Positions 384-991 of a stretch of DNA of 6,136 nt are shown piece after piece. The stretch lies in IMG/VR virus record IMGVR_UViG_2778261249_000001, positions 1-6,136 of that record; one strand, given 5' to 3'. This DNA is from a virus (lineage: Duplodnaviria; Heunggongvirae; Uroviricota; Caudoviricetes). The first letter of the stretch is position 1; every line of letters begins with the position of its first letter. A model generated the notes under the pieces. That model was not told the origin of the DNA, did not search any database, and worked only from the letters and a program-made list of their open reading frames with translations. A program made the translations under genes and the position numbers.

Positions 384-653
384 TCACTCCTTCACTTTGA
401 CTCCAGCAGCGCGGATGTTTTCCTCATAAGCATCCATTGCATCACCGAAGCCATTGGAATAATCAACAGTAAACCCTTTGGCTAATGCTTCTCTGCTGTC
501 GATAAACTTTGGCGCGGTTATTTCAATAGCTGCTCGCGATGCCTGCCACGCTTGCCAATACATCTCAACCATATTGGCGTATATTTTATTTTTATGATCA
601 CATCCGGTGTAATTTTCAAACCATTCTTCAAACTGCTTTCTTGATTCGTCCAT
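384..653 (-). CDS. Hypothetical protein, about 89 aa (MDESRKQFEEWFENYTGCDHKNKIYANMVEMYWQAWQASRAAIEITAPKFIDSREALAKGFTVDYSNGFGDAMDAYEENIRAAGVKVKE)
   Basis: ORF-track frame 384..668. I prefer ATG at 653-651 because GGAGAGG (complement of 657-663) lies 3 nt upstream. Alternative in-frame starts are ATG 665-663 and GTG 668-666, the latter overlapping the stop of the upstream ORF. No family recognised. Confidence 0.6.
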   Translation of the reverse strand: MDESRKQFEEWFENYTGCDHKNKIYANMVEMYWQAWQASRAAIEITAPKFIDSREALAKGFTVDYSNGFGDAMDAYEENIRAAGVKVKE

Positions 654-667
654 ATTCCTCTCCATCA

Positions 668-991
668 CTAGACTTTGTGCTGTTCTGAAATAACACGAGA
701 AAATGCCTCACGCCGCCATTCTTTGCTGCGCTCAATGTCATCCTGCATATCTTTAAATTCGACATTTTTCCTTGATTTCTGCAAGGTGTAACCGCATCGG
801 GCCATGTACCAAAGAAAGGTGTCAATAACATAGATATGCCCATCTCTGGCATTACCGTTTTCGTTAGCATTCCCAATTGTGTCGTGCATAGCATTAAACA
901 CATCTTTCTGGTCGTGAAAGTCGCGTAGAAAGCCAGGAAGATATTCGCCGCTTTGCAACCATTCAATTAATCCATTTTCGTTACTCATCAT
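668..991 (-). CDS. Hypothetical protein, 106-107 aa (MMSNENGLIEWLQSGEYLPGFLRDFHDQKDVF...)
   Basis: ORF-track ORF with tandem ATG ATG at 991-986, preceded on the minus strand by GGAGAGGA (complement of 992-999). Stop TAG at 670-668 overlaps the next ORF. The second ATG (988) may be the true start. No family recognised. Confidence 0.65.
   Translation of the reverse strand: MMSNENGLIEWLQSGEYLPGFLRDFHDQKDVFNAMHDTIGNANENGNARDGHIYVIDTFLWYMARCGYTLQKSRKNVEFKDMQDDIERSKEWRREAFSRVISEQHKV

Follow-up and report, generated by a model that had tools for sequence, protein, structure and literature searches.

Genes A and B, two small minus-strand genes of a lambdoid prophage, are likely to be accessory genes of a hypervariable slot, with the sequence that they share forming the core of a conserved junction for swapping unrelated genes. 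The window (the whole stretch of DNA that we analyzed, 6,136 nt, positions 1-6,136 of IMG/VR record IMGVR_UViG_2778261249_000001; Caudoviricetes) is the early-right region of a lambdoid prophage. On the minus strand, along which it is read, the genes run cro, cII, O-like initiator, primase-helicase, ninA/tR2, then a gene of 55 aa, A, B, a gene of 54 aa and ninB. A and B lie in the interval from ninA to ninB, which is hypervariable and has the replication genes on one side and ninB on the other (Table 1).

Table 1. Genes, borders and junctions of the slot, with positions in the window
Feature	Position	Strand	Description
Cassette gene A	668-991	-	107 aa from first ATG (991), 106 aa from second (988)
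Gene B	384-653	-	89 aa, start MDESRKQF; PF26207 (Phage_phiTE_015), PHROG 343
J1 junction	986-1019	-	CTAACATCCAGCACGC-TGACGGAGAGGAAT-G-ATG
J2 junction	631-667	-	TGATGGAGAGGAAT-ATGGACGAATCAAGAAAGCAGTT
J3 junction	376-401	-	GTCAAAGTGAAGGAGTGAGTATGAGC
55-aa gene, upstream of A	1016-1183	-	GTG start; phrog_36993, E=2.3e-44
54-aa gene, after B	217-381	-	phrog_1603, E=1.7e-32
ninA-like 26-aa mini-ORF with tR2-like terminator	1188-1268	-	Upstream border of the slot
ninB, 5' part (recombination protein NinB/Orf), cut by window edge	1-240	-	Downstream border of the slot

Gene order and borders of the slot

An earlier reading made from the sequence alone (the sequence-only reading) had described minus-strand ORFs of 107 and 89 aa at this locus, and both are present. 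The mini-ORF at the upstream border, compared with ninA of phages L, Sf6 and HK620, is homologous to the Sf6 stretch annotated 'bsq6; boundary sequence' and tR2. The stretch at the downstream border is annotated 'recombination protein NinB' in matching E. coli records. GC content is 42-43% at the accessory genes versus 51% in the primase-helicase gene. The 55-aa gene precedes A in each E. coli context examined, and the order 55-aa gene, A, phiTE_015 gene, NinB is kept in 10 of 10 places and also in loci L001 and L002. The neighbors in related loci do belong to the NinB, NinE, NinF, NinG, NinH and NinX families. A and B themselves match none of the Pfam and NCBIfam models of these six families, in agreement with the sequence-only reading, which had recognized no lambda nin gene in either.

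A shared core lies within conserved junctions

The window contains exactly two copies of GGAGAGGAAT, both on the minus strand (654-663 and 990-999). The claim that the same element precedes both genes is thus correct, although the coordinates first given for it (656-663 and 992-999) were slightly off. With one mismatch the repeat extends to a 14-nt core, TGATGGAGAGGAAT at 654-667 and TGACGGAGAGGAAT at 990-1003, and its common form, TGA[C/T]GGAGAGGAAT, is a direct, non-palindromic repeat. Within the window alone this is modestly unexpected: 0.28 matches are expected when up to one mismatch is allowed, and 5 of 200 shuffles contained two or more. The 14-mer and its flanks recur at equivalent junctions in dozens of independent phage contigs, and the repeat is beyond chance.

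J1 and J2 are conserved junctions of about 35 nt each that have this 14-nt core in common. J1 contains the TAA of the 55-aa gene (1016-1018), a spacer, the core with its Shine-Dalgarno sequence and the ATGATG of A. Its consensus across 69 unique viral instances is ctaacaccccaGcacgc TGATGGAGAGGAAT gATGa, with unrelated sequence on either side. The core of J2 opens with a TGA that serves as the stop of most cassettes. Behind this core, the first 8 codons of the phiTE_015 gene show conservation at the level of the DNA itself. Identity is 95-100% over the 18 nt past the core, third codon positions included, and conservation collapses beyond. J3 comprises the end of B, whose TGA stop is at 384-386, together with a Shine-Dalgarno sequence (AAGGAG) and the start codon of the 54-aa gene (ATG, 379-381). 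The J3 sequence also ends the phiTE_015 homologs of phages L and Sf6, where different genes come next. J1 and J2 each hold an upstream stop, a Shine-Dalgarno sequence and the next start codon within 14-17 nt.

The start codons of A and B were assigned by comparison with homologous loci. A probably starts at the second ATG (988-986, 106 aa) because some homologous junctions read AATAATG or AATTATG and retain only that ATG. The junction core, with its TGA, begins immediately behind the TAG stop of A (668-670). Homologs of B begin MDESRKQF, and loci with another upstream gene have an in-frame stop just 5' of this ATG, which places the start of B at 653-651. The start of B lies 14 nt past the stop of A, and the Shine-Dalgarno sequence sits right behind that stop. 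The stop-to-start overlap at 668 reported in the sequence-only reading would need the unsupported GTG at 668-666 (TAGTG, a 94-aa ORF), and we discard it.

Replaced, empty and double sites between the junctions

A scan of viral contigs with a J1 18-mer returned 78 loci, with 66 J1 instances carrying the J1 flank. Because the loci were picked by this 18-mer, conservation of the J1 core among them holds by construction, and the independent evidence comes from the flanks, J2 and the empty sites only. About a dozen of the 78 matches have no J1 flank, which compares with roughly 13 chance matches in a hand estimate that assumes about 58 Gb of sequence. In the 66 lambdoid viral contigs, the cassettes behind J1 fall into 21 unrelated families, including that of A, which accounts for 5 of the 72 slot cassettes. 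Almost all slot contents are proteins without an assigned function (such as DUF7301, DUF7685, PHROG 15705 and small membrane proteins). J2, for which no selection was made, is present in 58 of these 78 loci, where it stands ahead of the phiTE_015 gene, and 55 of 82 J1-initiated ORFs end exactly at the TGA of the next core. J2 also stands behind other genes in L017, L019 and L020. The junction is common without being universal, as the phiTE_015 genes of L015, L016, L021 and Sf6 use another ribosome-binding site.

Zero, one or two cassettes lie between copies of the core. The J1-J2 architecture was found in 53 loci and J1-J1-J2 in 4; tandem cassettes are present in L029, L046, L054, L055 and L087. 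Six contigs (L107-L112) carry an exact empty-site junction, with the left part of J1 joined to the right part of J2. L019 provides a replacement, with a different 65-aa gene in the slot of A and the same junction on both sides. A synthetic query joining the 55-aa gene to B found no empty site in complete E. coli genomes. As would be expected of a boundary sequence, the junction is conserved in many phages between unrelated flanks, namely 21 downstream families and about 40 upstream clusters, the latter an upper estimate because some of the frames chosen look spurious. Natural variants also start and end at the junction, by replacement, deletion and duplication. The existence of empty-site alleles means that A is dispensable and accessory, as the sequence-only reading had supposed in calling the two genes accessory cargo.

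We infer from these sequence variants that exchange could occur at the junctions, which may serve two purposes. They would give each incoming cassette a ready translation start, tight behind the preceding stop, and they would present short patches of homology where phage or host recombinases replace, delete or duplicate cassettes. Red/Erf-type annealing proteins, or NinB/Orf with RecA, are candidate recombinases, and unequal exchange between J1 and J2 would produce empty and double sites. General or short-homology recombination is the most likely mechanism. The survey, which identifies the element as the core of a junction flanking interchangeable cassettes, lends strong support to the suggestion that the initiation region was duplicated or recombined. 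Conservation of the junction might also come from selection for translation or from recent common descent of the flanks.

Such selection or shared descent might even be the whole explanation. The repeat would then be just a good ribosome-binding site that plays no part in recombination, and illegitimate recombination would occur anywhere, with only in-register products surviving. As a Shine-Dalgarno sequence GGAGAGG is strong, the 55-aa gene too is preceded by GAGAGG, and the repeat is only modestly unexpected in the window alone. Clear conserved sequences are rare at phage mosaic joints and absent from most mosaic boundaries, so illegitimate recombination is generally favored (PMC3029335). 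The conservation seen here, however, exceeds what a Shine-Dalgarno sequence needs, taking in 17 upstream nt in J1 and, in J2, 18-24 nt of coding sequence with its third codon positions. Many independent lineages have their breakpoints at the junction, and the units that distinguish empty, single and double sites are bounded exactly by the 14-mer. We regard this explanation as quite unlikely and favor a junction at which cassettes are exchanged.

One and the same 14-nt element, together with its flanks, encloses no fewer than 21 alternative genes, and the slot occurs empty, singly filled and doubly filled. The slot is thus a clean natural test system for asking whether short homologies drive module exchange. 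The junction can also be used as a search handle that lists the contents of a hypervariable early-gene slot, and these contents are ready candidates for counter-defence or host-takeover screens.

B is a mosaic gene and A is not its obligate partner

B is the nearly constant phiTE_015 gene behind J2. It matches phrog_343 (E=2.2e-28), and RefSeq names some members of its family 'phiTE_015 family protein'. Homologs 94-98% identical to B have a precomputed match to PF26207; a direct Pfam scan of B and its homologs gave no PF26207 match. The AlphaFold2 model of B has a pLDDT of 77.2. Judging from the alignment of homologs, where module swaps are seen, B is a mosaic gene with swappable N- and C-terminal modules between conserved stretches at the start (MDESRKQFEE), in the middle (WQASRAAIEI, about 520-557) and at the end (IRAAGVKVKE). 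Megablast alignments of B with E. coli genomes are interrupted at the same middle stretch (about 520-557) and at about 619.

The sequence-only reading had presented A and B as a pair, and they could be imagined as a functional two-gene system (toxin-antitoxin-like or effector and partner) held together by translational coupling. The genes are adjacent, the 14-nt gap between them holds a Shine-Dalgarno sequence directly behind the stop of A, and a phiTE_015 gene follows A in all E. coli contexts of A examined. That partner varies, however, from 76 to 156 aa across the E. coli A loci, with modules swapped, and a stop/start overlap is absent. Genes of the phiTE_015 family follow at least 20 cassettes other than A, or none, and B was found without A in several inspected loci. 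Of 5426 complete E. coli genomes, 4 contain A and 337 contain DNA that matches B. Klebsiella and Yersinia phages carry A without B within 5 kb, and the A homolog of Vibrio and Pseudoalteromonas phages is a lone opposite-strand gene in the head module. A and B are not an obligate pair, and we give almost no credence to a two-gene system.

A belongs to a widespread phage family

A matches phrog_15705 with E=1.1e-51 (residues 1-105 on profile positions 1-106 of 106). Distant homologs of A also match the PHROG 15705 profile, and the family carries no annotated function. All 245 close homologs are named 'hypothetical', and a profile search expanded the family to 433 clusters at 50% identity. The conserved motif is YLPxFMRDFHDQKDLFK...GHxYVIDxFLWFMAxxGYTLQKSR, in which D-F-H-D-Q-K-D is near-invariant. 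Tandem-duplicated forms occur, and for this reason A probably works as a dimer. Homologs are found in phages of Klebsiella, Yersinia, Vibrio, Shewanella, Pseudoalteromonas, Synechococcus and Cellulophaga. In bacterial genomes the homologs are found in the early regions of prophages, close to integrase, RecT, Erf or YqaJ; the neighbors within 3 kb across 20 bacterial A loci include RecT (4), ERF (3) and YqaJ (3). A 112-aa ORF on the minus strand (628-966), in a frame other than that of A, was set aside as a shadow of A.

A alone thus represents a widespread, strongly conserved phage family without a Pfam model or known fold. Pfam and NCBIfam scans of A, B and the small ORFs on either side yielded no meaningful family, and Pfam scans of 35 and then 102 homologs of A (the second to E=5) yielded no recurring one. 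DinB_2 was rejected as a family assignment, as it appeared in 2 of the 102 homologs only, at E=0.013. In the PDB, single-sequence queries and a profile of 102 sequences returned chance matches only, such as an estrogen receptor at E=0.16. The AlphaFold2 model of A is weak (pLDDT 71.8) and was built on a shallow alignment. Fold comparison of the A and B models gave no specific match. Family searches and structure comparison were thus in line with the sequence-only reading, which had assigned neither gene, and yielded no function or specific fold. The literature yielded nothing specific on the motif of A or the names of the families, on DUF7301 or bsq, or on anti-defence in the nin region. One A homolog, P0353, has a C-terminal zinc ribbon with a weak match to the Lar-like restriction-alleviation PHROG 599 (E=1.7e-4); a Lar-like link for the A family would depend on this protein alone and was judged too weak.

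The gene neighborhoods raise the question of whether A is an auxiliary replication or recombination factor, part of core DNA metabolism rather than an arms-race gene. A adjoins replication genes and ninB both here and in a Yersinia phage, the homolog in Shewanella phage 1/4 sits among exonuclease and recombination genes, RecT, ERF and YqaJ lie near the bacterial homologs, and the sequence is strongly conserved across phyla. Its rarity and dispensability, evident from its counts among E. coli genomes and slot cassettes and from the empty sites, argue against such a role, as does the placement of homologs inside the head or tail modules of other phages. The Pfam, PDB and profile searches also detected no nucleic-acid-binding or enzymatic domain in A. 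We consider a role in core DNA metabolism unlikely.

Predicted expression and possible roles

An intrinsic terminator resembling tR2 lies upstream of the slot, where a terminator scan identified a hairpin at 1215-1239 (-21.6 kcal/mol, z = -3.3). No sigma-70-like promoter was found in positions 1-1400. Together these features place A and B in the repressed pR operon, where they would be silent in the lysogen. Transcription would come from pR, and only after N-dependent read-through of tR2, so both genes would be expected to work during the early phase of lytic growth but not in the lysogen.

Prophages often carry defence genes in their variable accessory loci. The P2/P4 hotspots are an example (PMC9122126), and A, B or both might similarly guard the lysogen through defence or superinfection exclusion. 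In Klebsiella phage BUCT610 the A homolog is four genes from an 'immunity to superinfection' gene. Against such a role, neither A nor B nor the small genes on either side of them matched any PADLOC family at E<=1, and the tR2-like terminator and lack of a promoter-like site argue against a defence expressed from the prophage. Homologs of A are also present in large phages of 134-245 kb (Shewanella, Synechococcus), lifestyle left aside. We judge a lysogen-guarding function very unlikely.

A would be a small helical protein, and any function proposed for it is a guess. Our own tentative guess, which we see as possible, is that A acts early in host takeover or counter-defence by binding a target that is widely conserved. 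It is doubtful, though conceivable, that the ninA-ninB interval of enterobacterial lambdoid phages is a dedicated, integrase-free exchange array whose 14-nt core and flanks are kept by selection for exchangeability, letting early counter-defence genes be shuffled between phages, with A representing a new phylum-spanning family of small helical inhibitors of a universally conserved host or immune target.

Comparison with known systems

We compared the slot to other modular arrangements of phage and bacterial genes. Integrons likewise hold promoterless interchangeable cassettes in arrays, bounded by a repeated element and read from an upstream promoter. The slot is distinct from an integron cassette array: no integrase gene lies beside the cassettes in any inspected lambdoid slot, and attC-type imperfect inverted repeats are absent. 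The 14-nt direct repeat combines a stop, a Shine-Dalgarno sequence and a start, unlike the imperfect palindromic attC.

The view that lambdoid phages undergo homologous exchange at short, conserved boundary sequences is credited to Susskind and Botstein 1978, with their modular theory, and to Clark et al. 2001, on HK620 (PMC3029335). The GenBank record of Sf6 annotates bsq2-bsq7. Like these, the junctions described here are short conserved stretches at module joints, surrounded by unrelated DNA and proposed as targets of homologous recombination, and a bsq6 (ninA/tR2) homolog lies just upstream of the slot in the window. J1, J2 and J3 differ in being absent from the numbered features of the Sf6 record, which go from bsq6 at ninA to bsq7 in Rz. 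J1 and J2 differ further in being a direct repeat of the 14-nt core. Since they share this core, the same element brackets each cassette, and with zero, one or two cassettes present the slot resembles a small array.

The cassettes also recall the morons of lambdoid phages, reportedly described by Juhala et al. in 2000, in being small, dispensable, lower-GC genes that lie between conserved genes and are spread in unrelated phages. The Vibrio and Pseudoalteromonas homologs of A look like classical morons. The slot cassettes, in contrast, have no promoter or terminator of their own and use the operon transcript and the ribosome-binding site of the junction. The lambda ren gene holds the place equivalent to the slot, and we detected no similarity between Ren and A or B. 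Ren lets lambda escape Rex exclusion, and it is no more than a positional precedent for an anti-exclusion gene at the slot.

P22-like phages have small genes in the same position between ninA and ninB: orf69 and orf86 of phages L and ST64T, gene 48 of Sf6 and L0091 of 933W. A differs in being another, much rarer cassette, that of PHROG 15705. The L/ST64T orf86 product and Sf6 gp48 are phiTE_015-family homologs of B. In phage L, orf69 (DUF7301) lies between the same J1 and J2, and the layout reads orf90, J1, orf69, J2, orf86, J3, orf98, ninB.

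The early-right region and its replication module

The window is the early-right region of a lambdoid prophage and reads mostly from the minus strand. Its replication module combines an O-like initiator with a 626-aa primase-helicase fusion, which occupies the position held by P in lambda and by a DnaB-type helicase in other lambdoids. A cluster of GTGACA/TGTCAC repeats inside the O-like gene (about 3690-3770) resembles the origin iterons of lambda O. Four small minus-strand ORFs, A and B among them, lie between the primase-helicase gene and ninB. The GC content of this cassette region is 42-43%, compared with 51% in the primase-helicase gene. 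DnaB-type helicases are present in other prophages bearing the same A cassette, and the cassette block therefore moves independently of the replication module.

Features of the early-right region, in window coordinates
Feature	Position	Strand	Remarks
N gene, lambda-type	start 6070	+	
cI-like repressor	5035-5688	+	
cro	4702-4918	-	
cII	4289-4582	-	
O-like initiator	3257-4117	-	TIGR01610, E=1.7e-30
Primase-helicase, 626 aa	1269-3149	-	related records: toprim-domain protein
ninA-like mini-ORF, 26 aa	1188-1268	-	MTIYITELITGAIYTVALFYWIGSER; homologous to Sf6 stretch 'bsq6; boundary sequence'
55-aa acidic gene	1016-1183	-	PHROG 36993, CPFC motif
J1, junction before A	986-1019	-	
Gene A	668-991	-	
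J2, junction before B	631-667	-	
Gene B	384-653	-	
J3, junction after B	376-401	-	GTCAAAGTGAAGGAGTGAGTATGAGC
Gene after B, 54 aa	217-381	-	PHROG 1603
ninB, 5' part	1-240	-	

The shared repeat and the limits of A and B

The initiation element that the sequence-only reading saw before both genes is real. It occurs exactly twice in the window, as a 10-mer, GGAGAGGAAT, at minus-strand positions 654-663 and 990-999. At up to one mismatch, 0.28 matches were expected, and two were reached in 5 of 200 shuffles. Allowing one mismatch, the two copies agree over 14 nt, TGA[C/T]GGAGAGGAAT. That reading's suspicion of a recombined initiation region proved correct: the genes sit in a hypervariable slot with a conserved cassette junction, of which the repeat is the core, and the repeat is not the mark of a coupled gene pair.

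Both ORFs proposed from the sequence are present. Their supposed stop-to-start overlap at 668 is true only of a GTG start giving 94 aa. Homologues of B start at MDESRKQF, and loci with another gene before B have an in-frame stop just upstream of its ATG. B therefore starts at ATG 653, 14 nt past the TAG of A, and a Shine-Dalgarno sequence directly follows that stop. The start of A is most likely the second ATG (988), because it is the sole ATG kept in several homologous junctions (AATAATG or AATTATG). A ends in tandem stops, TAG-TGA (665-670, minus strand). Close homologues such as P0022 have one extra codon (Glu) before ending on the junction core's TGA; thus, the TAG of A, one codon early, has the look of a recent point mutation. 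A 112-aa ORF in another frame of A's strand (628-966, TTG start) was treated as a shadow ORF.

A conserved junction brackets interchangeable cassettes

In E. coli strain YZ22PE165 (L019), an unrelated 65-aa gene occupies the place of A and is flanked on both sides by the repeat (...CAGCACTCTGATGGAGAGGAATGATG... and ...TGATGGAGAGGAATATGGAC...). We scanned IMG/VR for the J1 pattern, TGAYGGAGAGGAATNATG, and 78 loci were returned; matches without the J1 flank fit about 13 chance hits (a hand estimate that assumes a collection of ~58 Gb). A wider J1 consensus, CTAACACCCCAGCACGC-TGATGGAGAGGAAT-GATGA, was found in 66 J1 instances. The genes initiated at J1 comprised 72 cassettes from 21 unrelated families by BLASTP, with five cassettes belonging to A's family, and the genes upstream of J1 were equally diverse. 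A second copy of the 14-mer, which the scan pattern could not select, stood before a phiTE_015-family gene at 58 of the 78 loci.

J2 reads TGATGGAGAGGAAT-ATGGACGAATCAAGAAAG. Identity is 95-100% over the 18 nt past the core, at third codon positions as well, and drops abruptly beyond them. At L033, among other loci, a gene has only its first eight codons in common with B, so these codons belong to the junction and not to a conserved protein domain. The stop codon of 55 of 82 cassette ORFs is exactly the TGA with which the next core begins. J1-cassette-J2 was the usual architecture (53 loci); tandem double cassettes were found at five loci, and six contigs contained a precise empty site in which the J1 left flank is joined to the J2 right flank. 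The chain in phage L runs helicase, ninA/tR2, orf90, J1, orf69, J2, orf86, J3, orf98, ninB. Another ribosome-binding site precedes the phiTE_015 gene in L015, L016, L021 and Sf6, indicating that the junction is common and not universal. We consider it probable that this architecture is correct and that the junction serves both translation and exchange, the latter by a presumed recombination step.

J3 links the 3' end of B with the 54-aa gene. In phages L and Sf6, the phiTE_015 homologues finish in the same sequence, but the genes after them are different.

A and B occur independently

The proposed pairing of the two genes was not borne out, as A and B occur independently and do not overlap. 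Of 5426 complete E. coli genomes, 4 contain A and 337 contain DNA matching B. In every E. coli context seen, A follows the same 55-aa gene (PHROG 36993) and precedes a phiTE_015 gene, which varies from 76 to 156 aa; the upstream replication modules differ too. Klebsiella phage BUCT610 and a Yersinia phage carry A without B within 5 kb, and several viral contigs contain A homologues without the 55-aa gene upstream.

B is a member of Pfam PF26207 (Phage_phiTE_015) and PHROG 343. Its homologues, all annotated as hypothetical, occur in P22-like phages (L, ST64T, Sf6 gene 48), HK022, Stx phages and Pectobacterium phage phiTE. The gene is internally mosaic, with swapped N- and C-terminal modules between a conserved start, middle (WQASRAAIEI) and end (IRAAGVKVKE). 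Megablast hits break at these places.

Gene A and the alternative cassettes

A matched PHROG 15705 (E=1.1e-51) and no family in Pfam, NCBIfam or PADLOC scans. A profile search returned 433 clusters at 50% identity, 318 of them below 1e-10. A striking motif marks the family, YLPxFMRDFHDQKDLFK...GHxYVIDxFLWFMAxxGYTLQKSR. Homologues are found in phages of Klebsiella, Yersinia, Vibrio, Shewanella, Pseudoalteromonas, Synechococcus and Cellulophaga, and in 20 diverse bacterial genomes, in which they lie in prophage early regions and the commonest neighbor families within 3 kb are integrase (7), RecT (4), ERF (3) and YqaJ (3). In Vibrio and Pseudoalteromonas phages alike, a homologue resembles a moron, being a lone opposite-strand gene within the head module. 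Some members are tandemly duplicated and carry the domain twice in about 200 aa (P0241-P0244, P0246 and similar), which suggests that the working unit of A may be a dimer. The AlphaFold2 model is all-helical and weak (pLDDT 71.8, shallow alignment). A few family members have C-terminal zinc-ribbon extensions, and one of these, P0353, shows a weak Lar-like restriction-alleviation match (phrog_599, E=1.7e-4).

Among the J1 cassettes that take A's slot in other loci, that at L033 1734 (+) included, the commonest is DUF7301 (18 of 72). Others include DUF7685, an HTH_37 (XRE-type) protein, several small membrane proteins and cysteine-rich mini-proteins. The 20 families other than A's are essentially uncharacterized, almost none having an assigned function. 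Our best guess for A, a tentative one, is an early host-takeover or counter-defense factor.

Predicted expression

A tR2-like intrinsic terminator lies upstream of the cassettes, its hairpin (1215-1239, a 10-bp stem followed by a T run) falling inside the ninA-like ORF; its RNA fold has z = -3.3. A search of window 1-1400 for sigma-70-like promoters gave none, against an average of 3.0 in shuffled sequence. A and B are therefore predicted to be delayed-early genes of the pR operon. From this layout, both should be expressed after N-dependent antitermination and be silent in the lysogen. The predicted silence counts against a prophage-expressed defense role and fits an early lytic accessory role.

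Relation to known boundary sequences

The ninA-like ORF adjoins the primase-helicase stop without a gap (TAA then ATG). The view that lambdoid phages exchange DNA by homology at short conserved boundary sequences goes back to Susskind and Botstein (1978) and Clark et al. (2001), both cited in PMC3029335, which also states that no such sequence can be found at the majority of mosaic joints. The features annotated in the Sf6 GenBank record are bsq2 to bsq7, with bsq6 (ninA/tR2) followed next by bsq7, within Rz; this numbered set therefore does not include J1, J2 or J3. Compared with the Sf6 bsq sequences, J1 and J2 are distinctive in their direct-repeat core: one element brackets each cassette, with an occupancy of 0, 1 or 2.

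The ninA-ninB stretch of HK620 (L102, AF335538; 12378-12585), in which the record annotates nothing, contains a 68-aa membrane-type ORF. This ORF resembles the gene preceding the phiTE_015 gene in L021.
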